The notes beneath the pieces are model-generated. The model saw only the letters and a program-made list of their open reading frames with translations, had not been told where the DNA came from and ran no database searches. Position numbers and translations under genes: made by a program. Positions 24,587 to 62,959 of a DNA stretch of 64,000 nt are shown in pieces. The DNA is from Microgenomates group bacterium (GTDB lineage Bacteria > Patescibacteriota > Microgenomatia > UBA12405): positions 135,494-199,493 of the forward strand of contig JBAQNJ010000001.1 in assembly GCA_049303675.1 (NCBI GenBank), written 5' to 3'. The first letter of the stretch is position 1, and each line of letters opens with the position of its first letter.

Positions 24587-24943
24587 TTGACAATACCTCA
24601 TTTCTATGCGAATATATCGCCAAATATGATTAACTTAAACAAGAAAATAAATCTTATGGGTTCTCCCGCCATGAACAAAGAAGCAGAAGATATCATGGAG
24701 AAGCTAATCGAAGCTGCCAAAGTTAAAGGTGAGTGGACATCGATACCAATAGATGAAATACAACCTCTCGAAGCACTCAATCAGAATAAATCCTACCATC
24801 GGTTGGATCTACCAGCACTCGACGAAGGACTCCAAAAAATTCAATCATCTGGTATGGCTATTGTCGAATCAGGCGTTGACGGTAAAAAAATATTAACACC
24901 CACCATAGCTTTCCAAAATTTTGTCAAAAGTCGAATCAAATAA
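24587..24943 (+). CDS. hypothetical protein (118 aa)
   Basis: ORF only. A minus-strand terminator element flanks each side. Confidence 0.3.
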   Translation: MTIPHFYANISPNMINLNKKINLMGSPAMNKEAEDIMEKLIEAAKVKGEWTSIPIDEIQPLEALNQNKSYHRLDLPALDEGLQKIQSSGMAIVESGVDGKKILTPTIAFQNFVKSRIK

Positions 24944-24945
24944 AA

Positions 24946-24975
24946 AAATCCCCAGCAGGGGATTCGTGAAGGTCT
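24946..24975 (-). terminator. intrinsic terminator (ATCCCCTGCTGGGGAT + T7) for the flippase gene
   Basis: The minus strand reads atcccctgctggggatttttttt immediately 3' of the 25003..26229 CDS. A second copy lies at 24541-24568. Confidence 0.6.
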
Positions 24976-25025
24976 CCCTTTCTTCAAGGGGAGATGTCAG
25001 CTTTAGCTGACAGAGGGGTTTTGTC
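24973..25025. repeat. GC-rich composite hairpin element (family H): hairpin1 CTCCCTTT-loop-GGGAG, variable hairpin2, tail GAGGGGTTTTG
   Basis: tctccctttcttcaaggggaga-tgtcagctttagctgaca-gaggggttttgtc. Related copies at 837-869, 18472-18556, 21190-21240, 24413-24458, 29710-29745, 38598-38662, 48924-48970 and 49036-49085. Confidence 0.8.
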
Positions 25026-49823: not shown

Positions 49824-49839
49824 TACTACTTGTGTAGTA
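49824..49839. promoter_or_regulatory. CopY-type operator TACTAC-TTGT-GTAGTA, 10 nt upstream of the copY start
   Basis: 16-bp palindrome of the same family as the sites at 52285, 56308, 60291 and 60919. Confidence 0.6.
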
Positions 49840-49848
49840 TAATCACTT

Positions 49849-50205
49849 ATGAACTGCGATTGTAACTGTAATGCTAAATGTAAAATGCTCGGTGGCCTCG
49901 AACAAAAAATTATGGAGTCCCTCTGGTCTAGTAACGGCCCCCAAAAGCCCTCCGATATCGTCAAACAGCTTGGTGATAGTCACGCCTATACCACTATCAC
50001 TACCGTACTCAAAAGAATGTCCGACAAGGGGATTGTCCGGCGTGTTCCCAAAGGTAATGTTTTTTATTATGCCCCAGTCTTAGATAAATCTACTTATGCC
50101 TGCGAATGTCTTGACGACCTCTTCCAGCGCCTTTTTGATACTTATGGTGCTGAGGTAGTTACTTCTTTTCGTCGTATCTCCAAAGACAAAAAATATTCTA
50201 TCTAA
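49849..50205 (+). CDS. copY: CopY/BlaI/MecI-family winged-helix repressor with C-terminal Cys motif
   Basis: Winged-helix core (SDIVKQLGDSHAYTTITTVLKRMSDKGIVRR) and C-terminal CxC (YACECLDDL) as in copper-responsive CopY. N-terminal CDCNCNAKCK cluster. Confidence 0.75.
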   Translation: MNCDCNCNAKCKMLGGLEQKIMESLWSSNGPQKPSDIVKQLGDSHAYTTITTVLKRMSDKGIVRRVPKGNVFYYAPVLDKSTYACECLDDLFQRLFDTYGAEVVTSFRRISKDKKYSI

Positions 50206-50866
50206 TCTTTTTATATTCTTCGACAAATTTATTTAGTTTTTCTCTTTTCTTCCAGCCGATTCCTCCTTCTGCCAGTGTCTCGATAAACATCTTTGTCAAA
50301 ATTGGCTGTTTTTCTCGCTCTCCGTTTTGATTTTGGGCATAGCAAAGCATTAAGCAATCAACCAGAGGGTGGATTATTTGATCTTTGCTCCATCCCTCCT
50401 CATCCACTCCATTTATTCCCATTTTTCGCAGGACATCAAAATAGGTTCTCTCCAAAAAATGGGCCGCACTCCCGACAAACAATGCCTCCGGACTCGCCTC
50501 CATAGTTGAAGCAATCAAAATCCCTCTTTTCCTTTTTTCCGGATCAGGCTCGTTTTGTCCCAGTATCATCGCTTCTCTACCTTCCCTCAGACCTGCCAAC
50601 ACGCTCCTTGCTGGCAACTCTCCAATTAGGGGTAACTTTATTTCACCCAAGAGCGTTTTTAGTCCTCGTGCTCCGTCCATTATTTCCAAGGCTGGATCAT
50701 CTATTTTTAATTTATTAAATTCACCAATCAGTTCGTTTAATCCCTCTACTACCAAGTATTCCAGTTCTGGTTGTTTTTCATCATAAATTTTCTCAGCCTC
50801 GGGTGTCCTCGCCAGTTCTCCGAGGCGTTTACCAAACGATTTTACTGGTAACAATCCTTCGGTCAT
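50198..50866 (-). CDS. hypothetical protein (222 aa)
   Basis: ORF only. Confidence 0.35.
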   Translation of the reverse strand: MTEGLLPVKSFGKRLGELARTPEAEKIYDEKQPELEYLVVEGLNELIGEFNKLKIDDPALEIMDGARGLKTLLGEIKLPLIGELPARSVLAGLREGREAMILGQNEPDPEKRKRGILIASTMEASPEALFVGSAAHFLERTYFDVLRKMGINGVDEEGWSKDQIIHPLVDCLMLCYAQNQNGEREKQPILTKMFIETLAEGGIGWKKREKLNKFVEEYKKIR

Positions 50867-51591
50867 TGGTATTCTGGATATTTATAACCCTTATTGGTTG
50901 TCTCTATATATTTTTCCGGATCAAAATCAATATTCCAAATTTTTTTCAAAATCACTTTAGCAATATAGGCATTACCTAATTGGTTTGGATGCCAAAAATC
51001 GAGATCGCCTTTTTTAATATTTTCCTCAACTATATCGCACTCAGAAACAAAAGTATAAATTTTTTCTTTTGGAAAATTATCCGACTCTTTATCCAAATCA
51101 ATGAAATTGTTTAAACCCAAATTTCGTTGTATCTCAACATAGGGCAAACACAATTCATTTGACCTATCATTCCACGCTTTGTTACATGTAGACAGCCATA
51201 TTTCTATATTATCCTTTTTCATTCGTTCTAATATATTTTCCAAATTATTTTTATACTCATCTTGACTCACTCCTTGAGTTGGGTCATTGGCTCCAATCAT
51301 CAATATCATTAGGTTTGGCTTAGCGCCACTTATATCATCCAATTTGTTCACTATATCTCTCGAGGTACTGCCATCGTATCCAAAATTAAAACAGCGTATT
51401 CCCCAGTTAGGTGTGCGAAAATTGGGAAATTCGTCATTCATTTCTTCTTTTAATACATATTCCACCATTTCTCGCCAGTTTGGGTGCACCCATTCGGTGC
51501 TAGTTATCGAGTCTCCCACAAACGCAATCCAATATTTTCCGCTTTCTGTCAACGCTTTTTTAATTTTATCCATAGCTGATTTTAACATCAC
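50863..51591 (-). CDS. SGNH/GDSL-family hydrolase
   Basis: Block I IAFVGDSITS and block V DFWHPNQLGNAYIA. Confidence 0.7.
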   Translation of the reverse strand: MMLKSAMDKIKKALTESGKYWIAFVGDSITSTEWVHPNWREMVEYVLKEEMNDEFPNFRTPNWGIRCFNFGYDGSTSRDIVNKLDDISGAKPNLMILMIGANDPTQGVSQDEYKNNLENILERMKKDNIEIWLSTCNKAWNDRSNELCLPYVEIQRNLGLNNFIDLDKESDNFPKEKIYTFVSECDIVEENIKKGDLDFWHPNQLGNAYIAKVILKKIWNIDFDPEKYIETTNKGYKYPEYQ

Positions 51592-51606
51592 AATTTACAC
51601 TAGATT

Positions 51607-51996
51607 TTGTCTGTAATATTATTATTTATAATCACAAAAACAGACTGGAAAATAATTTATTATCAATACCCCAACGGAAAAGAACCAATTTATGACTTTA
51701 TAGAGTCATTAAGTCCTGTCGCCCAAGCAAAAGTTTCCAATACCTTTGATTTGTTGCTACAGTTTGGAATTAGACTAGGACTACCACACGTCAAAAAAAT
51801 CTCCAATACTGATTTATGGGAGCTAAGGATTCTCGGCGGTGATAGCATTCGCATCATATATATTGCCACAACAGGTAAACAATTCTTATTACTTCACGGG
51901 TTTGTCAAGAAAACCCAAAAAACCGACAAGAGAGAACTTAAAATCGCCCAATCAAGACTAAAAGAATTTAATCATCACAATATCACAAAATTGTGA
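51607..51996 (+). CDS. HigB/Gp49-like (RelE superfamily) toxin
   Basis: WKIIYYQYPNGKEPIYDFIESL...ELRILGGDSIRIIY pattern of Gp49/HigB-like addiction-module killers. Confidence 0.6.
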   Translation: MSVILLFIITKTDWKIIYYQYPNGKEPIYDFIESLSPVAQAKVSNTFDLLLQFGIRLGLPHVKKISNTDLWELRILGGDSIRIIYIATTGKQFLLLHGFVKKTQKTDKRELKIAQSRLKEFNHHNITKL

Positions 51997-52008
51997 TATC
52001 ATATAGAC

Positions 52009-52278
52009 ATGGATTGGCAAACACACAAAAAACAGTTACTAAAAAATCCTGAATTCAAAAAGGCACTCGTTGAGTCAAGTATTGAGTTTCAAATTGTCAA
52101 ATCGGCCATCGAAGCCAGACTTAAAAGTGGTCTAACTCAAAAACAGTTAGCCAAAAAGATGAACACCAAACAATCCGTTATTTCTAGATTAGAAAATGTC
52201 AAAACTATTCCTTCAATTTCATTTTTGAAAAAATTTGCCATAGCCACCAACAGTAAACTAACCGTTGTCTTTCAATAA
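52009..52278 (+). CDS. XRE-family HTH antitoxin (HigA-like)
   Basis: HTH segment LTQKQLAKKMNTKQSVISRLEN, immediately downstream of the toxin gene. Confidence 0.65.
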   Translation: MDWQTHKKQLLKNPEFKKALVESSIEFQIVKSAIEARLKSGLTQKQLAKKMNTKQSVISRLENVKTIPSISFLKKFAIATNSKLTVVFQ

Positions 52279-52284
52279 TCAAAG

Positions 52285-52300
52285 TACTACACTCGTAGTA
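52285..52300. promoter_or_regulatory. CopY-type operator TACTAC-ACTC-GTAGTA abutting or overlapping the start codon at 52300
   Basis: Identical 16-mer to the site upstream of copA. Confidence 0.6.
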
Positions 52301-53655
52301 TGCTAAGCAAAGCGAAGTCCCGCAACGGCGGGATCATTAAGTCAATCACTTATGCCGTCTCCGGCACCCACTGCCACGCTTGCGAAATCTTAATCGAAAA
52401 AGAAATTCGGGACATGCATGGTATCAAATCAGTCGAGGCCTCAACCGCCGATTCTACTGTCAAAATCTCTGGCACCCACATTCCCGAAATATCCTTACTA
52501 AATAATATTTTCAAGGACTCTGGTTATATATTTTCAAAAAATCCAGTTTCCAGTTTCCAGTTACCAGTTACTTCTAACTCTCCCGACATCTTCACCTCCC
52601 TTCTTATTGTCTCTGGCATCTTGATTATCTTTTTCATCCTCAACAAAATGGGATTATTGTCCGCTTTTACCGTCAATTCTAGTTCCTATTATCCAGCATT
52701 TTTTATGTTTGGGCTTATTGCTGGCCTATCTACTTGTGCTGCCCTAATTGGCGGTATTGTCGTCGCCATTTCCCAGCGTGGATTCTCCTCAGTTCTTTCT
52801 TTTCTCACCGGTCGAGTAATTTTATTTGGAGTTTTTGGTGCCATTCTCGGCTACTTTGGCAGTTTTTTTAGACTATCCCTGACTGCAGGAGCCATTGTCA
52901 GCGCAATTGTATCTCTGGTTATGTTTATTGTGGGCATGCAAATGCTCAATATCGCTTGGTTCAAGCGTTTTTCTTTTGCTTTACCCAAAAATATTACCGG
53001 CCCCTTAGCCGATGACTCCACCTTTATTGGACGTTACTTGCCTTTTATTTTTGGGGGACTTACTTTTTTCCTCCCCTGTGGCTTTACCCTTACTGCCCAA
53101 ACACTCGCCCTAGCCTCAGGTGACATCATCAGTGGTGGATTAATTATGTTGTCCTTTGCTCTGGGTAGTTTTATACCCCTCTTGCTCATTGGCTACGGCA
53201 GTTCTTCATCACAGAAAAATCCTCGCACTGCCGCCTATTTTTCCCAAGTTGCTGGTATCCTCGTTGTCTTGTTTGCCATGTACAATTTGTATTCCCAATC
53301 CATTGTTCTCGGCATAAATCCAGTTTTCAAATCATCTGAGATCCGAGATCTGACATCTGATATCCAAATTATTAATGGCACTCAAATCCTGAAGATGACC
53401 GCCAGTGCCTCAGGTTATACTCCCAATAGTTTTACCATCAAGGCAGGACAGAAAACCCGCTGGGAAATTACTGACAAGGGGACTAGCGGCTGTACCAACG
53501 CTGTCATCTCAAAAGGCTTGTTGGGCAACGATATTATCAATCTCGTCGCTGGTACCACCTCAGTCAAGGAATTCACCGCCCCCACTGCCGCCGGCACCTA
53601 TCGCTTTTCCTGTTGGATGGGTATGATTAGTGGCACTATTGAAGTAGTTCAATAG
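52300..53655 (+). CDS. HMA-domain / DsbD_2 (CcdA-like) transmembrane / C-terminal cupredoxin-like metal-handling membrane protein
   Basis: N-terminal HMA (SGTHCHAC). TM region with paired Cys motifs (LSTCAAL, FLPCGF) as in the CcdA/DsbD_2 family. C-terminal beta domain ...GTYRFSCWMGMISGTIEVVQ. Confidence 0.6.
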   Translation: MLSKAKSRNGGIIKSITYAVSGTHCHACEILIEKEIRDMHGIKSVEASTADSTVKISGTHIPEISLLNNIFKDSGYIFSKNPVSSFQLPVTSNSPDIFTSLLIVSGILIIFFILNKMGLLSAFTVNSSSYYPAFFMFGLIAGLSTCAALIGGIVVAISQRGFSSVLSFLTGRVILFGVFGAILGYFGSFFRLSLTAGAIVSAIVSLVMFIVGMQMLNIAWFKRFSFALPKNITGPLADDSTFIGRYLPFIFGGLTFFLPCGFTLTAQTLALASGDIISGGLIMLSFALGSFIPLLLIGYGSSSSQKNPRTAAYFSQVAGILVVLFAMYNLYSQSIVLGINPVFKSSEIRDLTSDIQIINGTQILKMTASASGYTPNSFTIKAGQKTRWEITDKGTSGCTNAVISKGLLGNDIINLVAGTTSVKEFTAPTAAGTYRFSCWMGMISGTIEVVQ

Positions 53656-53658
53656 AAT

Positions 53659-54822
53659 TTATTGCCAAGCACTCTGCTTTTTAATTATTTTCTCGACTGA
53701 TTCCCTGATGAAATTATTATCATGTATTTTGTTATTTGATCCAGTCATTATCAGCTTAATTTGTTCTACCGAATACGGGGCACCATATCCTACACTTCCC
53801 CACAATGCGGGAATATGGGCACTGTCCAAACCCATATCTTTCAGTTTCATTCTCAAATCAATCGAGTAACCAAACAAATCATCTTGGTTCATTTCTAATA
53901 GATCAATTGTATCCGACAATTCAACCAAATCTCCATACCTAGACATCCTTATTGTCTCCACAATTTTATCAGCTGTATCTTCGCTTACACCGGTTATCAC
54001 GAGTCCATATTTTAACCCGACCATTTCAAATCCTGTTGCCAATCTCTCTCTGTGAATACTATCTACATCTCCGTCTCTATTGTCTAAATTCTTAAATATT
54101 GGAGTTGCCACCTTTTCAGCTTCCCTTGCCGTGATGTCGTGTCCAAAATTCATGATTCCTAGATTATTTTTTGATTTTTCCCCTAGTTCCAATGGTAGTT
54201 CCTCTGCTAGTTCGCAAAAACGTCTTTCCAGAGCTCGATCAATCGAGTGGGCGTATTCATGTCCAGCTAATGACGCCAATGCCGCATTCAACACTTGCTC
54301 AGAAGTCAAGTCTATATCATTTTTTGCTGCCGCTCTTTGTATAATGCCCAGCCGGTTTTCGATCCCACCAACTGATATGTATATTTCTGGTTTTGAGTCA
54401 CCATCACCTCTAATATTGATTCCACCACTCATATTTTCAACAATTTGTATATCTGCTCCTCTAGTTAGTTTTCCCGTAATCACCACCAAATCCTTTGGAA
54501 TTAATCCGTTTTTTGCTGCCATCGATATGAACCCATTAGTTAGCTGGCCCGACATAGCCTTTAACTGATCCAAGTTAACGGCTTCTTCACTGCCATATTT
54601 ACTAGTATCATATTGGGAAATTTCCTCTCTAATTATTTCCTCTACTCTTGATATATCTCTAAACCTGTCATTTTTCTCCCATATAAACCGACCATCATCT
54701 CCCCGATTTTTCCACAAGCCTTCCGTGTGAATCCTTTGCATTATCTTGTATCCAGCAGTGACAATTCCCTCTTTGTTTTCACTTCCGTGGACTGATTCGA
54801 TAGCATCTCGTTTTGACATCAA
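53659..54822 (-). CDS. hypothetical HExxH-motif protein (possible zincin-like metallopeptidase), D/E/G-rich
   Basis: LAGHEYAHSID motif. No TM. Confidence 0.4.
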   Translation of the reverse strand: MMSKRDAIESVHGSENKEGIVTAGYKIMQRIHTEGLWKNRGDDGRFIWEKNDRFRDISRVEEIIREEISQYDTSKYGSEEAVNLDQLKAMSGQLTNGFISMAAKNGLIPKDLVVITGKLTRGADIQIVENMSGGINIRGDGDSKPEIYISVGGIENRLGIIQRAAAKNDIDLTSEQVLNAALASLAGHEYAHSIDRALERRFCELAEELPLELGEKSKNNLGIMNFGHDITAREAEKVATPIFKNLDNRDGDVDSIHRERLATGFEMVGLKYGLVITGVSEDTADKIVETIRMSRYGDLVELSDTIDLLEMNQDDLFGYSIDLRMKLKDMGLDSAHIPALWGSVGYGAPYSVEQIKLIMTGSNNKIHDNNFIRESVEKIIKKQSAWQ

Positions 54823-54977
54823 TGTATTTTACTATTAATTCCAGCCACTCAACCAATCTTCCTATTTCAGTCTAATCAAACTACTCACACATTTTCCTGT
54901 AAACACTTACTGTCTAGAAAATATTTTTCTACTACCTATACAAAAATGGATAGTTTATAAGCTACTATTCAACTGCA

Positions 54978-55047
54978 TTTTTTCCGGCACATACCGTTTC
55001 TCCTGTTGGATGGGTATGATTTCCGGAACTATCGAAGTGGTGAATTA
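54978..55047 (+). pseudogene. remnant copy of the cupredoxin-like C-terminus of the 52300-53655 gene
   Basis: tccggcacataccgtttctcctgttggatgggtatgatttccggaactatcgaagtggtgaattag encodes ...GTYRFSCWMGMISGTIEVVN*, near-identical to 53590-53655. No upstream ORF. Confidence 0.6.
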
Positions 55048-55048
55048 G

Positions 55049-55327
55049 TTATTTTGCCGCGTATTCTCTCTTCACCGCCTCAGCCAACATTATTTTCATC
55101 AACGATTGATATGGTACATCCTTTTTGTTGGCTATCATCTTTAAATCGTACATTAATGTATTCGGCAATCTAATCGTAATTGGCTTTGCAGTTGGTTTTA
55201 ATTCAGACAAATCTAACTCAACCTTCATCGATTCATCAAAGAAATCAGTCGCATCATGTGTCGCCCAGAAATCTCTCTCCTGATCCTCGTTTTTAAATTT
55301 TGGTATTTGTTTTATTTTATTTCTCAT
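55049..55327 (-). CDS. BrnA-type antitoxin (N-terminal DFWATHD motif, C-terminal RHH)
   Basis: RDFWATHDATDFFDE plus ribbon-helix-helix ITIRLPNTLMYDLKMIANKKDVPYQSLMKIMLAEAV. Confidence 0.65.
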   Translation of the reverse strand: MRNKIKQIPKFKNEDQERDFWATHDATDFFDESMKVELDLSELKPTAKPITIRLPNTLMYDLKMIANKKDVPYQSLMKIMLAEAVKREYAAK

Positions 55328-55622
55328 ATAATTTTTTCTCCTTTTTACTCATATCTCGAGCAGAAATAACTCTAATTTTTTTATTTCTAATTGTAAAAAA
55401 TATAGACAACTTCCTCTTTTTTTCGGTAATTCCTAATGCCAACCATCGTTGTTCATTTATGGAATGCCTTTCGTCAAAAAATGTTTTTAAATTAGCTTTA
55501 TTAATTAAAAAAATTTGTTCGCACTCAGTATAATCTACTTCATGCTTTTGCCAGTTTTTAAGCTGGTTTCCTTCATCCCAATCAAAAACAATTGGTCTTG
55601 ATGGTAGGTTCTTTTTTGTCAC
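55317..55622 (-). CDS. BrnT-type toxin (DUF497 RNase)
   Basis: IVFDWDEGNQLKNWQKHEVDYTECEQIF matches the DUF497 N-terminus. Overlaps the brnA-like gene. Confidence 0.7.
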   Translation of the reverse strand: MTKKNLPSRPIVFDWDEGNQLKNWQKHEVDYTECEQIFLINKANLKTFFDERHSINEQRWLALGITEKKRKLSIFFTIRNKKIRVISARDMSKKEKKLYEK

Positions 55623-55656
55623 TGTACATGATGATACAATACATTTTATCTTCTTG

Positions 55657-56271
55657 TCAAGTCTTTCTCGCTACCAATCTAATTAATCCACTCACATTCT
55701 TTATTTCATCTTTTCGACTAACACCTAGGTTATCCAACAATATTATTTCAAATCCAGTTAACACTTTTTTCATCGATTCAATACTAAAAAATCTTTTACT
55801 AATACCACTTTCATCGACATAATAGTCTTTTTCAATTTCTTTATATTCACTAATCTCAGGATCATTGGTCGAATTTACTAATATTGCCAATATTCCACCA
55901 GTTTTTAATATATTTTTCATCTCCAAAAACAACTTTATTGTTCTTTCTTTATCAAAATAGTGAATGCCAAGGTGTGAATAAATCACCTCAAAACTTTCAC
56001 TTTCAAATGGCAATGGTATAGCCATGTCTACTAGTTTGAATTCAGTTGTTGCCACTTCTTGGCTATATTTCGAAAAATCCGTTGCCAGCACTTTGAATCC
56101 CTTTTCACTCAAATATTTACTATCCTGTCCCAATCCTACTCCTAATTCCAAAACAGAACAATTTTTCGGAAAATATTTTTCCACTTCTTGAACAAAAATT
56201 GTTGGACTTCTACTCCAATCAGCATCCGCATATTTTCCCAACTTTTTCCTCCAAAAATCTTGTAAGTTCAT
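55657..56271 (-). CDS. class I SAM-dependent methyltransferase
   Basis: Motif I VLELGVGLGQD, motif II KVLATDFS. Confidence 0.7.
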   Translation of the reverse strand: MNLQDFWRKKLGKYADADWSRSPTIFVQEVEKYFPKNCSVLELGVGLGQDSKYLSEKGFKVLATDFSKYSQEVATTEFKLVDMAIPLPFESESFEVIYSHLGIHYFDKERTIKLFLEMKNILKTGGILAILVNSTNDPEISEYKEIEKDYYVDESGISKRFFSIESMKKVLTGFEIILLDNLGVSRKDEIKNVSGLIRLVARKT

Positions 56272-56307
56272 ATTTGTATTATATCTCCTTGACTTTCCTG
56301 AACAAAC

Positions 56308-56323
56308 TACTACACTCGTAGTA
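56308..56323. promoter_or_regulatory. CopY-type operator TACTAC-ACTC-GTAGTA, 1 nt upstream of the copA ATG
   Basis: Perfect palindromic half-sites. Confidence 0.65.
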
Positions 56324-56324
56324 T

Positions 56325-58604
56325 ATGCGTAACAAAGTGGAGTCCGCCTCAGGCGGAAGCAATCAAACCGAAAGTTTCCATGTTTCTGGAATGCACTGTG
56401 CTTCTTGTGCCTCAGTCATCAAAGGCCAACTTGAGGATATTGATGGCATAAGATCTTGTACTGTCAACTACGCCACCGAAAAAGCCCAAATATCTTTTGA
56501 CCCCCAAAAAGTTGCTCTACCCCAAATGAATCTGGCTATCGACAAGCTTGGCTACTCCCTTCATTCTGGTCACGATATGTCACCTATTTCGACCGAAACT
56601 GCCGCCAAAGATCAAAAACAAAAAGATTTGGACAGCATGAGTCGTCAACTAAAAATCATTCTTCCTATGGTTGGTATCAGTATTTTTGTCATGATTTGGG
56701 AAATCGGTGCCAATCCTTTTAAGCTTTGGACGGAAATGCCCGATGTTTTAATGGAATTTTTCCACCACCTTCTACCTATCTTTGCCACCTATTCGCTATT
56801 TGTTGTCGGTCTACCCTATCTTTTAGGTATCTCCCGCTTCATCAAACACCGTGTTGCCAATATGGATACCCTCGTTGGTATTGGTACCCTAGTTGCTTAC
56901 TCTTATAGCTTTATTGTGACCGCTTTTGAAAAGGTGTTGGCCCCCTATCTAAATACTCAACAAAATTATTATGATGTGACGATTGTCGTTATTGGTTTTA
57001 TAACTCTGGGTAAATTTCTCGAATCCCGTTCCAAGTTAAAAACAGGCGAAGCCATCGAAAAACTTTTAGACCTGCAGGCCAAAAATGCTCTTATCCTTCG
57101 CGATGGTCAGGAGATCGAAATACCCGTCGATCAGGTAGTTCTTGGTGACATTATGTTAGTCAAACCAGGTACCAAAATCCCCTTAGACGGCATAATTATT
57201 GAGGGGAAATCATCCATCGATGAATCGATGATTACTGGCGAGCCAATTCCTGTCGACAAAGGGCCGAAGGATAGTGTTATCGGTTCGACCATCAATAAGC
57301 AGGGTTCACTCCAAATAAAAGTTTCCAAAATTGGTGCTGATACTATGCTCTCCCAAATTATAAAAATGGTGACCGAAGCCCAAGGTTCAAAAGCACCAAT
57401 TGAGCGGCTGGCCGATCAAGTATCAGCCATCTTTGTCCCAATTGTCCTTATTTTATCTGTCGTGACTCTTATTGCTTGGATGATTGCTGGTCAGTTTACT
57501 TTAGGTATTTTGTGTTTTGTGGGAATTTTAGTCATTGCCTGTCCTTGTGCTATGGGTTTGGCCACACCTACGGCCATTATTGTAGGGGTTGGTAAAGCCG
57601 CTCAAAATGGAATTTTAATCAAAAATGCCGAAAGCCTTGAAAAATTAAATGGTGTAAATTTTGTCGTTATGGACAAAACCGGTACTCTGACCAAGGGTTC
57701 GCCCCAAGTTACCGATATCGAAGTTGTCAGTACTCAGTCAAAAAATGAAGTGTTACGTCTGTTAGCCTCGCTCGAAAATCACTCCGAGCACCCAATAGCT
57801 CAAGCAGTCGTCACCCAAGCCAAAGACGAAAAACTCGATCTTTTTAAAGTCACCGATTTTGAAATAATCGAAGGTCAAGGTCTCAAGGGGCAAATAAAAA
57901 GTACCCAATATCTTGCTGGCAATCTCCGGCTTGCAGCTGATCTCAAGTTATCAGTCGATCAAAAAGTCATCGACAGGCTCGCCACTCAGGGCAAAACCCC
58001 CATAATTTTTATGACCCCAAAAGAGATTATTGGTTATGTCGGTATCTCTGACACCATTAAAGACGACGCCATAGAGACTGTCACCGCCCTTCATCGCCAA
58101 AATATCAAAGTCGCCATGCTGACTGGTGACAACCAGATCACTGCCGAGTACATTGCCAAGTTAGTTGGCATTGATCGAGTTATTGCTCAAGTTTTGCCAG
58201 GGGACAAAGCCAAAGAGATCCAAAAGCTTCAGGCCGAAGGCTACAAAGTTGCCATGGTTGGTGATGGAGTCAACGACGCCCCCGCTCTCGCTACTGCCGA
58301 TGTCGGTATAGCTATGGGAACTGGTACCGATGTTGCCATTGAATCGGCAGGTGTTACCATTTTAGGTGGGCATATCGGCAAAATTCCCACTGCCGTCAAG
58401 TTATCTCATGCCACCATGAGTATTATTAAACAAAATCTTTTTTGGGCTTTCTTTTACAATATAATTGGCATCCCAATTGCCGCTGGATTGTTATATCCAT
58501 ATTTCAAAATTCTTCTCAATCCCGCCATTGCTGGTGCCGCCATGGGGTTTAGCAGTGTCTCGGTTGTCACCAACTCCCTCCGTCTCAAAACCAAAAAGTT
58601 TTAG
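56325..58604 (+). CDS. copA: copper-translocating P1B-type ATPase
   Basis: HMA SGMHCASC, TM CPC motif (ACPCAMGLATP), DKTGTLT phosphorylation site and GDGVNDAPAL hinge. Confidence 0.95.
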   Translation: MRNKVESASGGSNQTESFHVSGMHCASCASVIKGQLEDIDGIRSCTVNYATEKAQISFDPQKVALPQMNLAIDKLGYSLHSGHDMSPISTETAAKDQKQKDLDSMSRQLKIILPMVGISIFVMIWEIGANPFKLWTEMPDVLMEFFHHLLPIFATYSLFVVGLPYLLGISRFIKHRVANMDTLVGIGTLVAYSYSFIVTAFEKVLAPYLNTQQNYYDVTIVVIGFITLGKFLESRSKLKTGEAIEKLLDLQAKNALILRDGQEIEIPVDQVVLGDIMLVKPGTKIPLDGIIIEGKSSIDESMITGEPIPVDKGPKDSVIGSTINKQGSLQIKVSKIGADTMLSQIIKMVTEAQGSKAPIERLADQVSAIFVPIVLILSVVTLIAWMIAGQFTLGILCFVGILVIACPCAMGLATPTAIIVGVGKAAQNGILIKNAESLEKLNGVNFVVMDKTGTLTKGSPQVTDIEVVSTQSKNEVLRLLASLENHSEHPIAQAVVTQAKDEKLDLFKVTDFEIIEGQGLKGQIKSTQYLAGNLRLAADLKLSVDQKVIDRLATQGKTPIIFMTPKEIIGYVGISDTIKDDAIETVTALHRQNIKVAMLTGDNQITAEYIAKLVGIDRVIAQVLPGDKAKEIQKLQAEGYKVAMVGDGVNDAPALATADVGIAMGTGTDVAIESAGVTILGGHIGKIPTAVKLSHATMSIIKQNLFWAFFYNIIGIPIAAGLLYPYFKILLNPAIAGAAMGFSSVSVVTNSLRLKTKKF

Positions 58605-58763
58605 TGTCTCCGTCACCCTCAATTCACTCCCACTAAATCTATTTCAATCAAAGTATTAATATTGAAAAGACCTGATTTAATAAAGTACACAAGTTTGACA
58701 GTAAATATCTCTAGTAGTACATTAACTCATCACTGAAAATAGTTTATTCTGTGATCATGCAAA

Positions 58764-59288
58764 ATGATAGAACTCATAAATGCAACCAGAACTGCAATAG
58801 TAGACCAAAATTATTATTTAACTCTCTTTATCTGTTTAACAATGCCAGATATCGCTGGAAAGATTGAGTATCCAAACATTGATGGTCGAAATCATTACAT
58901 CAAATGGTTCAATGAAAATGTTGCAGACAAATATATTATTAATAATAAAATTTCACTTACAGGAAATGATTGCTACGCATTAAGATGTTCAATGTTGCAC
59001 GAAGGTGTTACAAACACCGAGCCTCAGCCAAGCCATGAATTGTTTAAAAAGTTTGTCTTTGGAAATTTTGAATCTCATAAAAATTGTTTTTTTGATTGTA
59101 ATTTTAATGGTGTAATCTGGGACGCAGTGATACAGCTAAGTGTCAGGCAATTTTGTTTGGATATGTGTGATTCGGCACAAATTTGGTTAGAAAGAGCAAT
59201 TGTGGACGACGAAAAAAAACAAAAAATTGATGACTTGGTAATTATTTATCCAGCAGGGAATTCAATAAACGGAATGAGTTTCGGGTAG
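58764..59288 (+). CDS. hypothetical protein with a possible HEPN-like R-x4-H motif
   Basis: ALRCSMLHEG. A-rich codon usage unlike the core genes. Confidence 0.3.
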   Translation: MIELINATRTAIVDQNYYLTLFICLTMPDIAGKIEYPNIDGRNHYIKWFNENVADKYIINNKISLTGNDCYALRCSMLHEGVTNTEPQPSHELFKKFVFGNFESHKNCFFDCNFNGVIWDAVIQLSVRQFCLDMCDSAQIWLERAIVDDEKKQKIDDLVIIYPAGNSINGMSFG

Positions 59289-59310
59289 TTTCTGCTGATA
59301 ACATATATTT

Positions 59311-60027
59311 ATGTCTACCAACATCCTCTTCATCCATCACTCCACTGGCGGGTACCTATTGCAACAGGGGAAGGTGAGGGAATTGCTATTACAAAAAAAT
59401 AAACATCTTCAACTTTGGGATCATGGCTACAATCTTGACAAAAATCTCGTCAAATTTCCATTTTTAAGTTATCTCACTTTCAAAACTGGACTCAGTAATC
59501 CACTTGGTCTTATGACTGGCCGTGATTTTAATGTCAATATCAGCAATGATTCACCCGAGGGTTATGTCAAAACCTTTTCCCAAAAACCGACCGATTCTAC
59601 TTTATCCCAAATTCTAAAATTTGATATTATCATTTTCAAAAACTGCTATCCTACCACCAAAATAACCTCCGATGAACAACTAACCAAATATCAAAATTAT
59701 TATCAAACAATATTTAAATATCTAAAAAAATATCCTAATAAATTATTCATAGTTTTCACTTCACCACCGCTACGATCAGAGTTGACCAAACCTGAGTATG
59801 CTATCCGTGCCCGTAAATTATCTGATTGGGTCGTCGCTCACCAATCAAGAAACATCAAAACATTCGATTTCTTTGATTTATTATCTGATTCATCAAATAC
59901 CTTAAAACGCCAATATTGTCGGTTTCTTCCCTTCGACTCCCATCCCAATAAACTTGCCAATCAGACTATTGCCCCAATTTTAGTCAATGTCCTTGATTCC
60001 GTCTCCCAACAATTGGTTGTCAGTTAG
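59311..60027 (+). CDS. possible SGNH-like hydrolase
   Basis: Block-V-like FDSHPNKLANQTIA near the C-terminus. Weak block I (IHHSTGG). Confidence 0.35.
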   Translation: MSTNILFIHHSTGGYLLQQGKVRELLLQKNKHLQLWDHGYNLDKNLVKFPFLSYLTFKTGLSNPLGLMTGRDFNVNISNDSPEGYVKTFSQKPTDSTLSQILKFDIIIFKNCYPTTKITSDEQLTKYQNYYQTIFKYLKKYPNKLFIVFTSPPLRSELTKPEYAIRARKLSDWVVAHQSRNIKTFDFFDLLSDSSNTLKRQYCRFLPFDSHPNKLANQTIAPILVNVLDSVSQQLVVS

Positions 60028-60254
60028 AAGCGCACTCTCCCAATCACCACAATATTATTCTCACCTTTAAGTATTCCATCTTCTCCCAGCTCTGGCAACG
60101 TTTCGAGTATTTGAAATCCAGTATTACCTGTATCAATTCCACTTGGTCGAGCACCCTGCGCCCCACGTCTGGTCACCATCAACACTTTTTCGCCTTCTTT
60201 TAAGTGATACAACTGTTTGTCTCGAATTTCTTGTTTACGGGCGTCCATAGCCAA
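60024..60254 (-). CDS. hypothetical small protein (76 aa)
   Basis: ORF only. Confidence 0.3.
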   Translation of the reverse strand: MAMDARKQEIRDKQLYHLKEGEKVLMVTRRGAQGARPSGIDTGNTGFQILETLPELGEDGILKGENNIVVIGRVRF

Positions 60255-60290
60255 TTATATACCCACCGGTTTGACTTTAACCAACTCCAC

Positions 60291-60306
60291 AACTACACTT
60301 GTAGTA
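60291..60306. promoter_or_regulatory. CopY-type operator AACTAC-ACTT-GTAGTA, 1 nt upstream of the SHOCT gene
   Basis: One mismatch in the left half-site. The core TACActTGTA matches the classical cop box TACAnnTGTA. Confidence 0.55.
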
Positions 60307-60307
60307 T

Positions 60308-60544
60308 ATGATGAACTTTTATTATCCCTACGGCATGCATTACGGCTTCGGTTTCTTTTCTCTACTCTGGTACATCTTCATCTTTTGGTTGTTTCTCGCC
60401 ATTTTTCGCAAATTATTTCACCCTGATTCCACCACCAGCACCTCTTCCGCCAGCGAATCCGCTCTCGATATTCTTAAGCTCCGTTATGCTCGGGGCGAAA
60501 TCACCAAAAAAGAGTTTGATTCCATGAAAAAGGATATAAGCTAG
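60308..60544 (+). CDS. small membrane protein with C-terminal SHOCT domain
   Basis: Two hydrophobic helices followed by ALDILKLRYARGEITKKEFDSMKKDI (SHOCT). Confidence 0.6.
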   Translation: MMNFYYPYGMHYGFGFFSLLWYIFIFWLFLAIFRKLFHPDSTTSTSSASESALDILKLRYARGEITKKEFDSMKKDIS

Positions 60545-60810
60545 GTTCTTCTATATGGCATTATTACTTCTCCATACTTACTCCTTGCAATTGATTCTGC
60601 TGAACTTAGATGTCCGCTATTGATGTTTACGTTATTTCGCCTCAAAAAATTTAATGCTCCTACTATATCGTCTGTAATTGAATTATGTCTAGCTACAATA
60701 GCCCAAGCCTCCATCTGACCGACTCTAAAAGGTTTACCACCGTCGATTGAAATGTTTAGTTTCGCCGTATCTACCAACACATCTATTCTATCTATATAAA
60801 ATATTGTCAT
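60541..60810 (-). CDS. hypothetical protein (89 aa)
   Basis: ORF only. Confidence 0.3.
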   Translation of the reverse strand: MTIFYIDRIDVLVDTAKLNISIDGGKPFRVGQMEAWAIVARHNSITDDIVGALNFLRRNNVNINSGHLSSAESIARSKYGEVIMPYRRT

Positions 60811-60918
60811 ATTAGACCTGATTATATTAAAACAAATTTTGAAACTTTCAAAACAAGTTGCATTTTAATCTATCACGAGGTCCACTAATCCCTGCTTATT
60901 TGACATTGACTCTATATA

Positions 60919-60934
60919 TACTACAATTGTAGTA
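60919..60934. promoter_or_regulatory. CopY-type operator TACTAC-AATT-GTAGTA (contains perfect cop box TACAATTGTA)
   Basis: Perfect 16-bp palindrome, 17 nt upstream of the Cys-rich peptide ORF. Confidence 0.65.
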
Positions 60935-60951
60935 ACAATAATTTATTTTCT

Positions 60952-61047
60952 ATGATCAAAAAGAAGAAAGATGAAAAATTAAATTCCGAATTCACCTCCG
61001 AAGAATGTTGTGGTGGGCAGTGTACTTGCAATTGCGGTGATGAATAG
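60952..61047 (+). CDS. 31-aa Cys-rich peptide MIKKKKDEKLNSEFTSEECCGGQCTCNCGDE (putative copper-binding/metallothionein-like or RiPP-like precursor)
   Basis: Manual translation; the ORF is shorter than the track cut-off. A cop operator lies upstream and an intrinsic terminator downstream. Confidence 0.5.
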   Translation: MIKKKKDEKLNSEFTSEECCGGQCTCNCGDE

Positions 61048-61089
61048 ATCGTAGCAACAGAGTAGTCGAAAATCAGGTACTTGTAAATC

Positions 61090-61115
61090 AAACCCCCCCG
61101 AATTCCGGGGGTTTT
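61090..61115 (+). terminator. rho-independent terminator (ACCCCCCCGaattCCGGGGGTTTT)
   Basis: Perfect GC stem and a T-run, 43 nt after the peptide stop codon. Confidence 0.75.
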
Positions 61116-61237
61116 AGTTGGTAGCGGCTAAAATCAGCAGGGTCGGTGAAAGAGTGATAAACAAATATTTTTGGTTTTTGTATAATCAACTCGGATAATG
61201 AAAAACATTAAATATTGAAATTATCGACAAAAAACTT

Positions 61238-62506
61238 ATGATCATTTATTCGAGTACTACATTTAAATCAATAGAGCCATTCGGGGAAATCGAACTACCA
61301 GATTTTTGTGTGTTGACCGGTAGAAATGGTAGTGGCAAATCACACCTACTTACCGGAATAAAGGAAGGGAGTATTTTCGTCAGAGATACACCAGCAAAAA
61401 ATATTTTGTACTTAACCTTTTCAAATTTTGTCCAAAACTTTCAGGTTACAACAGATTATTCCCATAAGGTAAATGCTTGGAATAGATTTATAGATACGAA
61501 TAATCTCAACATACCCAACATATTAAGAAATTTAGAATCAAGGATAGAGCCTTACAAGGAAATAATTGAGAGTTCATCTAAGGATAAACACAAACCATAC
61601 CTTAAGTTAAATATATCTGACTTACCTCCAGAGAGCGGAGAGCTAGTTATCCGTGAACTCTCTAAATATAAAGATGAATTAATGGATATATTCAATCAGG
61701 ATAACTACAAAAATGACGAAATTTTACAGTCAATATTAGAGTCCGTAATATTTAAGTCAGAAATGTTTGCTTCATCAATAAAACACAACTACTTCTTTTT
61801 ACTTTTTCAAAAAACAGCGCTTGGTAGTAGTCAAATTTTGTCTGACTTAAGTACAATTTTTAACGAATATCACAGGAACATAAACCGCAACTTCTTAGTT
61901 TCAAAAAATGGGGGTTCAACTCTAGACAGTGATGAATTTGTTAATAAGTATGGAAAGCCACCCTGGGACCTAATTAGAAATATTTTTTCAGGATTCAACC
62001 TACCTTTCGATATTAATGATCCTTCAAGTGAGAATGTTGATCCTTTCGATGGTACTTTTCAAATAAAGTTTTTCAATACCGAGAGGAACAATAAAGAGAT
62101 TGTTTTTGGAGACCTTTCCTCAGGAGAACAAATCTTAATCACGCTAATAAACGCAATTTACACCGCTACAAGGAAGGACAATCTACCAAAGTTAATTTTA
62201 CTGGATGAAATTGATGGACCGTTAAACCCATCAATTATCCAAAAGTTTATAAACTATATCACTGAGAACTTTGTTGAAAATGGAATCAAAGTCATTGTTG
62301 CAACACATTCACCGTCCACAGTAGCGTTTAGCCAGAGTGATTCAATTTTTGCCGTTGATAGTACAAAAACACCTCCAATCACTCAAAAAGACCATTCACA
62401 AGCAATAAGCTTGTTATCAGATGGGTTTACTACTTTGTCAGATTTACTTGTTGTTAACACAGTATTAACAAATAGAATCGTTATATCTGAGGGGAAAAAT
62501 TATTAA
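61238..62506 (+). CDS. ABC-type ATPase of OLD/Gabija GajA/AAA_21 type (N-terminal part of a possible ATPase-Toprim nuclease)
   Basis: Walker A LTGRNGSGKSHLL, Walker B ILLDEIDGPLNP and H-loop VIVATHSPS. Ends ...VISEGKNY followed by a TAA stop, with the next ORF in the same frame. Confidence 0.7.
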   Translation: MIIYSSTTFKSIEPFGEIELPDFCVLTGRNGSGKSHLLTGIKEGSIFVRDTPAKNILYLTFSNFVQNFQVTTDYSHKVNAWNRFIDTNNLNIPNILRNLESRIEPYKEIIESSSKDKHKPYLKLNISDLPPESGELVIRELSKYKDELMDIFNQDNYKNDEILQSILESVIFKSEMFASSIKHNYFFLLFQKTALGSSQILSDLSTIFNEYHRNINRNFLVSKNGGSTLDSDEFVNKYGKPPWDLIRNIFSGFNLPFDINDPSSENVDPFDGTFQIKFFNTERNNKEIVFGDLSSGEQILITLINAIYTATRKDNLPKLILLDEIDGPLNPSIIQKFINYITENFVENGIKVIVATHSPSTVAFSQSDSIFAVDSTKTPPITQKDHSQAISLLSDGFTTLSDLLVVNTVLTNRIVISEGKNY

Positions 62507-62515
62507 CATCTTGAG

Positions 62516-62959
62516 TTGGCCTATTCTTTTTTTGGTAAAAACTTAGATTTGAGCATTTTAAATATCGCGAATCTTGGCAGTGGTGAGCTAAGAAACTTAT
62601 TTACATTTATAAACAGGTTTAACAGTACAAAAGAGTTTATATTTGTGTGGGACAACGATTACAGAATTAATGACAATGGCCAAGAGCGAGATTTGGTTGC
62701 TGTTCTGCGCCAATGCAGTAAGAACTCTAGGGTATATATTTTTGAAGAAAACTCAGCTGGGATCACAAAAAGGGGAATAGAAAACTTATTTAATCACGAA
62801 GTTTTGGATGGGTACGATGGTATTGTTGAACAAAATGGAGTAAAAAATAAAAATAGATTTTTCAACCATATTAGGAATCGAAATAATAGAAATGACTTCG
62901 ATAATTTTATGAAATTTTACGAATTTATCACAACTTCTAGTGTTTCGAATATAAAATAG
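62516..62959 (+). CDS. Toprim-like C-terminal segment (possible continuation of the OLD-family nuclease; TTG start in track)
   Basis: Same frame as the upstream ATPase, separated only by TAA plus 3 codons. FIFVWDNDYRIND provides a DxD-like acidic motif, downstream of the E in ISEGKNY. Confidence 0.4.
   Translation: MAYSFFGKNLDLSILNIANLGSGELRNLFTFINRFNSTKEFIFVWDNDYRINDNGQERDLVAVLRQCSKNSRVYIFEENSAGITKRGIENLFNHEVLDGYDGIVEQNGVKNKNRFFNHIRNRNNRNDFDNFMKFYEFITTSSVSNIK

Follow-up and report, generated by a model that had tools for sequence, protein, structure and literature searches.

A candidate copper-stress regulon with operators embedded in predicted leaderless promoters in a Microgenomates bacterium

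Results

The locus and its operator sites

The DNA studied here is a stretch of 64,000 nucleotides (nt) of contig JBAQNJ010000001.1 from an uncultured, ultra-small Microgenomates group bacterium, that is, from a member of the Candidate Phyla Radiation (CPR/Patescibacteria). In the following, this whole 64-kb stretch is called the window. Between 49.8 and 60.9 kb it contains five copies of a 16-bp palindrome, each of which is located 5' of an open reading frame (ORF) on the + strand. These ORFs code for a repressor related to CopY, a membrane protein with HMA, DsbD_2 and cupredoxin domains, the Cu(I) ATPase CopA, a small membrane protein with a SHOCT domain, and a Cys-rich peptide of 31 amino acids (aa). 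The features of this candidate copper-stress regulon are listed below; SD stands for Shine-Dalgarno sequence.

49824..49839, + strand: operator O1 TACTACTTGTGTAGTA, putative autoregulatory site of the regulator gene; the predicted -10 box TATAAT (49838-49843) overlaps its right end
49849..50205, + strand: copY-like repressor gene, 118 aa, BlaI/MecI/CopY-family winged helix (PF03965)
52265..52300, + strand: promoter-operator O2; -35 TTGTCT (52265-52270), -10 TACACT (52288-52293) within the operator (52285-52300)
52300..53655, + strand: HMA-DsbD_2-Cupredoxin_1 membrane protein gene, 451 aa, predicted leaderless (Pfam)
56289..56323, + strand: promoter-operator O3; -35 TTGACT (56289-56294), 16-nt spacer, -10 TACACT (56311-56316) within the operator (56308-56323)
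56325..58604, + strand: copA, Cu(I)-type P1B-1 ATPase, 759 aa, predicted leaderless (1 nt past the operator; TIGR01511)
60271..60306, + strand: promoter-operator O4; -35 TTGACT (60271-60276), 17-nt spacer, -10 TACACT (60294-60299) within the operator
60291-60306, + strand: operator of O4, AACTACACTTGTAGTA; one mismatch; holds the cop box TACACTTGTA
60308..60544, + strand: gene for a small membrane protein (78 aa) with a SHOCT domain at the C-terminus (PF09851, 2.2e-8), predicted leaderless
60900..60934, + strand: promoter-operator O5; -35 TTGACA (60900-60905), 16-nt spacer, -10 TACAAT (60922-60927) within the operator (60919-60934), which holds the cop box TACAATTGTA; promoter match 11/12
60935..60951, + strand: 17-nt A/U-rich leader of the peptide gene, without SD, predicted to be unstructured
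60952..61047, + strand: ORF for the 31-aa Cys-rich peptide MIKKKKDEKLNSEFTSEECCGGQCTCNCGDE, a thionein-like candidate (operator-linked ORF, orthologues)
61093..61118, + strand: intrinsic terminator CCCCCGAATTCCGGGGG followed by TTTT, closing the monocistronic peptide unit (hairpin 61095-61111, then TTTT)

The window was scanned for exact and mismatched matches to the palindrome TACTACNNNNGTAGTA, and 100 shuffled sequences served as a control. Exact copies occur at 49824, 52285, 56308 and 60919, and a fifth copy with one mismatch (AACTAC...) at 60291; the shuffled sequences contained 0.00 exact matches. The only further matches with at most two mismatches in the 64 kb, at 2574 and 19447, correspond to chance level (1.04 expected). 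The placement of the five sites is non-random, and the inverted repeat that a first-pass annotation of this DNA had reported 5' of five genes was thus recovered as four exact copies and one near-exact copy. The same annotation had placed the operators directly at the start codons. This holds for three of the five genes, namely for HMA-DsbD_2-cupredoxin (distance from operator end to ATG of -1 nt, the final A of the operator doubling as the A of the ATG), copA and SHOCT (1 nt each), and not for the copY-like gene and the 31-aa ORF, which begin 9 and 17 nt past their operators. It had also assigned the classical cop box TACAnnTGTA to two of the copies, in agreement with our scan: the box TACANNTGTA has two exact occurrences in the whole window, both within the operators at 60291 and 60919. 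The remaining three operators deviate from this 10-bp box by one base each.

Conservation of the regulon in related species

For comparison, 40 related loci (L numbers below), one per species, were combined with the window to a set of 581 kb. Note that these loci were picked because the regulator is present, so that the number of sites per kb does not represent a genome-wide frequency. The relatives of the regulator belong nearly all to Candidatus Shapirobacteria and neighbouring Microgenomates. In this set, 66 sites with at most one mismatch were found, 45 of them exact, and 58 of the 66 lie immediately 5' of a recurring gene class. The classes are DsbD_2-cupredoxin (13 sites), regulator (11), Cys-rich peptide (11), copA (9), DsbA-like thioredoxin (6), SHOCT (2) and a membrane protein with a CPVC motif (2); in some species, a gene for a GDSL hydrolase, a rubrerythrin or an extracytoplasmic function (ECF) sigma factor is divergent from the same site. 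Eight sites remained unclassified; one of them lies at the end of a contig, and others belong to short variants of DsbD_2 or to a DsbA-like gene. In about 35 related species it is the same classes of genes that bear the operator, and the regulator gene itself does so in at least 27. Because 58 of 66 sites precede recurring gene classes across the related loci, the operator set is, as judged from these comparisons, a conserved regulon rather than a local coincidence. The notion of one CopY-type repressor serving a multi-promoter copper regulon, put forward in the first-pass annotation, gains support from this conservation.

The operators of the individual genes are kept in detail as well. At the 13 sites preceding HMA-DsbD_2-cupredoxin orthologues, the operator ends -1 to +6 nt from the ATG, and the one-mismatch site of O4 recurs with its spacing before the SHOCT orthologue of locus L011. 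Target-gene operators are almost always perfect in the window and in the relatives, unlike the autoregulatory sites. The latter are regularly imperfect, with TGCTAC, TCCTAC or TGTTAC in the relatives L004-L035 and a T for A at core position 7 in O1 of the window. These imperfections suggest a weaker self-repression and a graded affinity of the sites. From the position of the sites (9 nt before the ATG of the regulator gene and 1 nt before that of copA), and from the conservation of this placement, we infer that the regulator controls its own gene and copA.

Further palindromes were noticed in the comparison set. A gene for a Crp/Fnr-type regulator (216 aa; L012 near 2364, L030 near 2179, L037 near 8383) is preceded by the related, distinct palindrome TACTAGTTAAGTAGTA or TACTACGTATGTAATA, and may be part of a second regulon with a similar site. 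In Collierbacteria, the half-sites before the regulator homologues themselves are separated by 5 nt (CTAC-N5-GTAG), whereas L039 contains a second paralogue behind a canonical site with a 4-nt spacer.

Promoter architecture and leaderless genes

In alignments anchored at the operator, a TTGACA consensus precedes the hexamer TACACT/TACAAT, which occupies operator positions 4-9, by 16-17 nt; at 35 sites, the distance between the operator end and the ATG amounts to -1 to +6 nt. In a second layout, which is used by nine sites in relatives and by the regulator gene of the window, a TATAAT overlaps the right end of the operator and the ATG is found at +9/+10. An independent promoter scan chose the same hexamers. 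The symmetry of the palindrome is retained in both layouts, which points to the site of a dimeric protein and not to a mere promoter element.

With the -10 hexamer inside the operator, a start of transcription at the ATG or no more than 5 nt from it is expected. Given the usual spacing of 6-7 nt between -10 box and start, it should be located at the last A of the operator. At O2 this base coincides with the A of the ATG, and at O3 and O4 it precedes the ATG by 2 nt. The TATAAT layout of the regulator gene likewise predicts a leaderless transcript. The geometry of leaderless genes, with a -10 box ending about 6-7 nt before the start codon and without an SD, is found at O1-O4. No downstream ATG could replace the predicted starts of the two HMA proteins, because their HMA domains begin at residue 17-18.

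This geometry is not restricted to the regulon. Of the 49 ORFs in the window with a length of 110 aa or more, 25 show a TAnnnT hexamer whose end lies 4-9 nt before the ATG, with a peak at 6 nt (random expectation 5.7 +/- 2.5), and only four contain an SD-like 4-mer. The same holds for 34 related loci (L002-L035), where 218 of 401 ORFs (54%) have such a -10 hexamer as compared to 16% at a control offset, and SD-like motifs amount to 7%. The corresponding values of the -10 test are 18% for Bacteroidota loci and 4% for Flavonifractor loci. On this basis, about half of the genes in this lineage are predicted to be leaderless; SD-like motifs are nearly absent, with 7-9% of the genes. The operators therefore abut the start codons because promoters in these genomes generally do so. 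The proposal that operators leaving no room for an SD imply leaderless transcripts or very short leaders agrees with the geometry at O1-O4; the trait is lineage-wide and does not set these genes apart. A literature search found no paper describing a leaderless or SD-poor gene organization in CPR bacteria.

Two GC-rich hairpins were noticed at 52317-52334 and 56342-56357, about 18 nt into the coding regions of DsbD_2 and copA, where they encode the extra residues SRNGG and SASGG that have no counterpart in the orthologues. Hairpins in the first 40 nt of these two mRNAs were considered as a regulatory feature and rejected; their z values relative to shuffled sequences are -1.2 and -0.8, respectively, and they are absent in orthologues.

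The regulator

The regulator matches PF03965 (Penicillinase_R) with an E-value of 6.4e-20 and 72.1 bits (gathering threshold 22.6). The family profile also matches BlaI (4e-7) and MecI (3e-6). In a model computed with AlphaFold2 (mean predicted local distance difference test score, pLDDT, of 86.5), helices comprising residues 16-27, 34-40 and 47-59 are followed by a beta-hairpin and by helices 80-99 and 102-113. Residues 1-10 are disordered in the model and helix 1 starts at residue 16. The top matches of a Foldseek search were 2g9w (Rv1846c) and the BlaI and MecI structures 1sd4 and 1okr.

The sequence contains a conserved Cys cluster at the N-terminus, M-[NS]-C-x-C-[HN]-C-x-x-K-C (C3-x-C5-x-C7-x3-C11), which was found in 29 species. 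Cys3, Cys5 and Cys11 are invariant in 29/29 and Cys7 is present in 27/29; both TGT and TGC are in use at every position. Met13 was considered as the true start and rejected. A Leu occupies position 13 in 18 of the 29 species, and selection at the level of the protein acts on the 12 codons before it. The occurrence of Leu at this position and of both Cys codons argues that the N-terminal tail is translated. Many public entries of the regulator comprise 106 aa, with the start called at Met13, and have thus lost the Cys tail. For example, P0024 is contained in the 118-aa translation of L003 (the lost 5' part corresponds to 10001-10036) and P0001 in that of the window (49849-49884).

The C-terminus of the regulator contains no Cys and no CxCx4CxC motif. 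A C84-x-C86 pair lies internally in the C-terminal half and is not conserved. The protein had been described as a CopY homolog with a C-terminal CxC; PF03965 supports its assignment to the BlaI/CopY family, while the pair C84/C86 is neither terminal nor conserved and the conserved cluster is N-terminal. By its sequence, the regulator is therefore not a canonical CopY. A library of 1.8 billion proteins was searched for homologues; of its 150 best representatives, one has the N-terminal cluster, one a C-terminal Cys tail and the rest none, although truncated gene calls may hide some clusters. C-terminal tails were seen in a relative from L034 (188-610; CLSCACPNCPDCGNDCSC), which has no N-terminal one, and in protein P0086 (CFCEGCPHNSGC). 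The 20 kb examined contain no BlaR1/MecR1 sensor protease next to the regulator and no M56 peptidase; adjacent to the regulator gene are those of an Fpg glycosylase and of a 222-aa product without a family match.

The Cys-rich peptide gene

The peptide MIKKKKDEKLNSEFTSEECCGGQCTCNCGDE contains five Cys residues (16%), all of them among the last 13 residues, and one Phe. Its ORF is preceded by its own -35 and -10 boxes combined with the operator and by an unstructured leader, is followed by a strong terminator, and is conserved. Given this combination, it is a real gene by the evidence of the sequence, even though the public gene collection contains no called gene with this product. The first-pass annotation was right about the gene, about the strong terminator at its end and about its being missed by gene callers; the number of Cys residues, given there as seven, has to be corrected to five.

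Orthologues of the same class as the window peptide were found in L003 and on the metagenome contigs L056-L059. They comprise 32-33 aa, differ in length by whole codons, show synonymous changes and represent four variants. The metagenome orthologues stem from one degenerate-codon scan (four contigs) whose pattern forces the Cys motif, so that they are no evidence for its conservation. These orthologues lie just 3' of an operator-controlled copA, and the peptide ORF of L059 has no promoter of its own. A stretch of the 3' untranslated region, CAGGTAC(A/T)(C/T)GTAAA, is conserved between the stop codon and the terminator (61048-61092 in the window; L003, L056, L057 and L059).

The other relatives were identified by operator-anchored ORF scans. 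Ten further genomes code for other peptides (26-36 aa, 6-9 Cys residues) that can still be aligned, e.g. MTEEKKCTCGPKCDCGCKNGSGCNCG. Nine of the ten genes are located 17-20 nt behind an exact operator; the tenth (L025) has no operator match within 60 nt upstream. Conversely, 11 of the 17 Cys-rich small ORFs in the 581 kb lie 17-20 nt after an exact operator. Each operator-linked peptide gene has its own -35 and -10 boxes, and most are followed by a terminator. A leader of 17-20 nt without an SD is present in all 11 operator-linked peptide genes, and among the genes of the regulon only these keep one. In the relatives L012, L013, L017, L019, L022, L024, L031 and L037, the leader begins with a shared (G/A)TTAAT(C/T)(A/G)TT right after the operator.

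The relatives' peptides of 26-29 aa contain 6-9 Cys residues and no aromatic residue, in keeping with the general traits of metallothioneins (a short chain, many Cys residues in CxC/CC motifs, hardly any aromatic residues). By these traits the window peptide is a borderline case. The peptide of one relative scored 19.9 bits against Pfam Metallothio_5, below the cut-off of 25, and a phmmer search of a relative's peptide against the PDB sequences yielded nothing at E-values up to 10. By composition and spacing the peptides resemble Cu-thioneins, which is to be understood as resemblance and not as family membership. Of the two roles that had been suggested for the window peptide, the metallothionein-like one is favoured by this resemblance in the relatives; the other, a precursor of a ribosomally synthesized and post-translationally modified peptide (RiPP), found no support, as there is no maturase and the unit is monocistronic.

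Further targets and neighbouring genes

CopA scores 595.5 bits against TIGR01511 (cut-off 397). It contains CPC406 in transmembrane helix (TM) 6, YN(x4)P711 in TM7, the MxxSS motif (MGFSS740) in TM8 and DKTGT450. At its N-terminus an HMA domain with a CxxC motif (GMHCASC22) is present; HMA domains of the CxxC type thus occur both in CopA and in the DsbD_2 protein. A literature search for HMA-DsbD-cupredoxin fusions yielded nothing relevant. In the closest relatives (L002 14788, L003 15201), copA codes for 1134-1146 aa; the product begins with two HMA domains and is considerably extended at the C-terminus. There the operator has the TATAAT-type layout, with the ATG 9-10 nt past the operator.

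Two toxin-antitoxin pairs are located between the units of the regulon, a Gp49/HTH_3 pair (51607-52278) and a BrnT/CopG-antitoxin pair (55049-55622). In L006, L011 and L032, the DsbD_2 operator has the gene of a GDSL hydrolase as its immediate divergent neighbour, and the Gp49/HTH_3 pair therefore looks like an insertion in the window. Directly 3' of the peptide terminator (61238-62959) follow an AAA ATPase of 422 aa, which weakly matches ATPases of the restriction-associated and PtuA types, and a 147-aa ORF without a family match, which together may constitute a defence pair. Elsewhere in the window, the 22-nt sequence AAAAAAATCCCCAGCAGGGGAT occurs in two identical copies (24539-24560 and 24942-24963), 403 nt apart within an unusually long gap between large ORFs (24266-25002). 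Each copy reads as a terminator-like hairpin on the - strand.

Discussion

A model for the regulon and the points that weigh against it

We consider it likely that the cluster represents a copper-stress regulon of a CPR/Patescibacteria genome, consisting of a BlaI/CopY-family repressor, five operator-promoters, targets related to copper and thiol chemistry, and a thionein-like peptide. It would work as follows. The dimeric repressor (49849-50205) would bind the 16-bp palindrome TACTACAnnnGTAGTA in five sigma-70-type promoters. In four of these, the left half of the operator and the spacer would supply the -10 box (TACACT/TACAAT), 16-17 nt after a TTGACa -35 box; in the promoter of the regulator, a TATAAT overlapping the right end of the operator would play this role. 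The bound repressor would cover the -10 box and the start site and thus block transcription. The mRNAs of the regulator, the HMA-DsbD_2-cupredoxin protein, CopA and the SHOCT protein would be leaderless, that of the peptide would have a 17-nt leader without an SD. Rising cytoplasmic Cu(I) would be bound by the N-terminal CxCxCx3C tail, which is located directly before helix 1 of the DNA-binding domain, and the Cu(I)-bound repressor would leave the DNA. Derepression would then yield the efflux ATPase CopA, the membrane thiol-transfer/cupredoxin protein, presumed to protect or repair extracytoplasmic thiols (relatives add a DsbA-like protein), the SHOCT protein, and the thionein-like peptide, which would buffer cytoplasmic Cu(I).

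Several points weigh against this model. It is by analogy that we infer binding of the repressor to the sites, copper as the signal, the N-terminal Cys cluster as the sensor, and copper binding by the peptide. The regulator reaches 33.4 bits against TIGR02698 (CopY_TcrY equivalog; cut-off 121.95), which still is its best match in NCBIfam, and its family profile is closer to BlaI of Mycobacterium tuberculosis (Rv1846c, 2g9w, 6e-13) than to CopR of Lactococcus lactis (3e-3). The window peptide has only five Cys residues (16%) and matches none of the Pfam metallothionein families. The regulon is rich in thiol-disulfide proteins and lies beside a rubrerythrin in some species, which would fit a redox signal. 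In Collierbacteria, the nearest clades (L036, L038-L041), the same operator precedes DsbA-like genes, and the regulators lack a Cys cluster; the operator-regulator pair would thus predate the copper-sensing tail, and its original signal may have differed. Finally, the site scan covered 64 kb of the source genome, and the genome-wide frequency of the site and the full extent of the regulon have to be read within this range.

The tail-less regulators of Collierbacteria, which occur with the same operator, together with the L034 relative, whose tail is at the other end of the protein, are also instructive with respect to evolution. The Cys tail seems to have been added late, to a repressor and operator that already formed a pair, and independently of Firmicutes CopY.

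Alternative explanations

If the copper-stress model is adopted, the role of the peptide can still be conceived differently. It could be a Cu(I) chaperone or signal relay that delivers the metal to the Cys tail of the repressor or to the HMA domain of CopA, as CopZ does for CopY in Enterococcus hirae. No separate CopZ-type gene was seen in the cluster, and the ORF following copA in L059 without a promoter of its own would suit such a partner. A lysine patch on CopZ is required for its docking to CopY, and peptides with Lys-rich N-termini (MIKKKKDEK, MDKDKK) occur here; moreover, the CxCxC of the peptides is similar to the CxCxCx3C tail of the regulator. However, 7-9 Cys residues in 26-36 residues, with a CxC spacing like that of the 26-aa Neurospora Cu-thionein with its seven Cys, argue for a multinuclear cluster over a single transfer site, and both CopA and the DsbD_2 protein already have a chaperone-like HMA domain fused to them. 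We therefore regard a chaperone function as rather unlikely.

A second alternative, and the main rival as far as the mechanism is concerned, relates to the signal. The repressor could respond to thiol or oxidative (disulfide) stress, with the N-terminal Cys cluster acting as a redox switch that releases the repressor upon oxidation; CopA and the peptides would then be accessory. The DsbD_2 protein and the DsbA-like thioredoxins of the relatives fit this idea, as do the rubrerythrin and the ECF sigma factor divergent from the same sites in some species, and Collierbacteria keep the operator before DsbA-like genes without a Cys-rich sensor. On the other hand, apart from the regulator, the regulon most constantly comprises the Cu(I) ATPase, thionein-like peptides, a cupredoxin domain and two proteins with HMA domains. 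In CopY proteins, the Cu(I)/Zn(II) sites are formed by tails rich in CxC (PMC7253601). Furthermore, copper itself causes disulfide stress in the envelope, so that Dsb-type members are equally at home in a copper regulon (compare Salmonella Scs). It is thus improbable that redox stress rather than copper is the signal.

The chance that the palindrome is bound by another factor, or is just a specialized promoter element with the gene of the BlaI-family protein as one target among others, appears very small. It is true that the -10 hexamer belongs to the palindrome and that a Crp-like regulator with the similar palindrome TACTAGTTAAGTAGTA is found nearby in some loci. Yet the right half-site GTAGTA, which has no promoter role, is as conserved as the left one, and the palindrome is kept when the -10 box shifts to the TATAAT at its right end. 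In addition, its core equals the TACA/TGTA half-sites of the BlaI family, the regulator gene bears the site in nearly every species, and no Crp-like gene was seen at 48-64 kb of the window nor among the genes called in L001.

Least credible of all is that the peptide gives rise to a RiPP or is secreted as a Cys-rich product of another kind: a small Cys-rich ORF whose hydrophilic N-terminal part can be read as a leader peptide would be compatible with this, but the unit is monocistronic with its own terminator, there are no adjacent genes for modification, protease or export (downstream lie the AAA ATPase and the ORF without a family match, upstream the SHOCT gene), each genome has other genes next to it whereas its association with copA and the cop operator stays constant, and there is neither a signal peptide nor a conserved boundary between leader and core.

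Origin of the sensor and general implications

Starting from the copper-stress model, a more far-reaching idea can be put forward tentatively, which we regard as the less probable outcome. The peptides of 26-36 residues could constitute a new prokaryotic family of Cu(I)-thioneins, widespread yet unannotated; they would be smaller than any others known from bacteria and convergent with the family-8 metallothioneins of fungi. The copper sensor of this CopY lineage could have arisen when such a thionein-like module was fused to a BlaI-type repressor free of Cys; Shapirobacteria would have received it at the N-terminus, a sister lineage at the C-terminus. The tail of the L034 regulator (...CPDCGNDCSC) resembles the L025 peptide (CNCGNDCRCG). 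If this idea were true, copper sensing would have been invented independently in the BlaI family. Since the sensor abuts the DNA-binding helix, the allosteric route would then also differ from that of canonical CopY.

Sensor, operator, promoters and targets of a regulatory circuit can here be read from the sequence in the Candidate Phyla Radiation, where gene regulation is almost unexplored and no member can yet be grown alone. The system would represent CopY-type copper control outside the Firmicutes; with the putative metal-binding tail at the opposite end of the protein, it offers a natural experiment on the coupling between metal binding and the release from DNA. The peptide genes form a class of 26-36-codon Cys-rich genes that gene callers miss. 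Their products are candidates for minimal copper thioneins and small enough for peptide synthesis. Genomes of this lineage appear to be largely leaderless and SD-free, which matters for the annotation of all of them and explains systematic errors in start codons such as the 106-aa regulator entries without the sensor tail. What is new is the relocated sensor motif, the fusion of operators with predicted leaderless promoters and the unannotated thionein-like micro-genes; the type of regulon, CopY-like copper control, is known.

Comparison with known systems

The system appears to be a recognizable variant of the Gram-positive CopY copper switch, and we found no paper describing it. Literature searches on CopY, leaderless mRNAs or metallothioneins in CPR/Patescibacteria yielded nothing relevant. 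According to a review from 2020, CopY-like repressors are exclusive to Gram-positive bacteria (PMC7558416). The operator consensus of CopR-CopY is RNYKACANNYGTMRNY, the half-sites of the family are TACA/TGTA, and C-terminal CxC pairs define the CopR-CopY proteins (PMC7253601). The regulator shares the BlaI/MecI/CopY winged-helix family with the Firmicutes proteins, i.e. CopY of Enterococcus hirae and Streptococcus pneumoniae and CopR of L. lactis. Common to both are a palindromic operator with a core of the TACAnnTGTA type, exact in two of the five sites, that is extended to 16 bp (TACTACAnnTGTAGTA fits 12 of the 14 specified positions of RNYKACANNYGTMRNY), and, as predicted here, autoregulation, control of a Cu(I) P1B ATPase and a CxC-type cluster as the presumed Cu(I) site. 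The distribution over several separate promoters is also known from the CopR regulon of L. lactis.

The differences are equally clear. The Cys cluster is an N-terminal CxCxCx3C directly before helix 1 instead of a C-terminal CxCx4CxC. The outermost operator bases are T...A as compared to the published R...Y; because of this outermost pair, the published 16-bp consensus RNYKACANNYGTMRNY has no match in the window, whereas its inner 14 positions fit four of the five sites. The operator supplies the -10 box of predicted leaderless promoters, neither a CopZ nor a CupA gene is present, and the regulon additionally comprises DsbD_2-cupredoxin, SHOCT and thionein-like peptides. Furthermore, the host is a CPR bacterium. 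BlaI/MecI and Rv1846c are the nearest solved sequences and folds and share the half-sites TACA/TGTA. In contrast to BlaI and MecI, which have no Cys-rich tail, the regulator has one; it lies without an adjacent BlaR1/MecR1, and its targets are metal and thiol genes and not beta-lactamase.

With respect to the peptide, two metallothioneins can be compared. MymT of M. tuberculosis is controlled by the CsoR-family repressor RicR and not by a CopY-type protein. It is a small Cys-rich copper metallothionein whose ORF was missed by annotation, which is induced together with copper efflux and is thought to hold several Cu(I) ions (PMC7558416). The window peptide is likewise a small Cys-rich protein from an ORF missed by annotation, for which induction by copper is assumed from its operator. 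MymT has 53 aa (4.9 kDa) as compared to 26-36 aa here, and no sequence relationship could be shown. The metallothionein of Neurospora crassa, a family-8 Cu-thionein, consists of 26 aa with seven Cys residues (PMC4755600). The 26-28-aa peptides of the relatives with seven Cys match it in size, Cys count and CxC spacing (short CxC-rich BLASTP matches, E-value of 2e-4 in a single comparison). Their Cys spacing of CxCx3CxCxCx5CxC differs from CxCx5CxCx3CxCx2C, and the likeness is compositional and no evidence of homology. The window peptide, with five Cys, has a longer N-terminal part with acidic and basic residues.

For the membrane protein, the closest parallel is the ScsABCD system of Salmonella (suppressor of copper sensitivity), which comprises DsbD-like and DsbA/thioredoxin-like envelope proteins. 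In both cases, a DsbD-type membrane protein, accompanied by a DsbA-like protein in the relatives of the window, is joined to the copper response, which for our system is the predicted one. The regulators differ, and the protein described here combines the DsbD_2 core with two fused domains, an HMA domain on the cytoplasmic side and a cupredoxin domain on the outer side.

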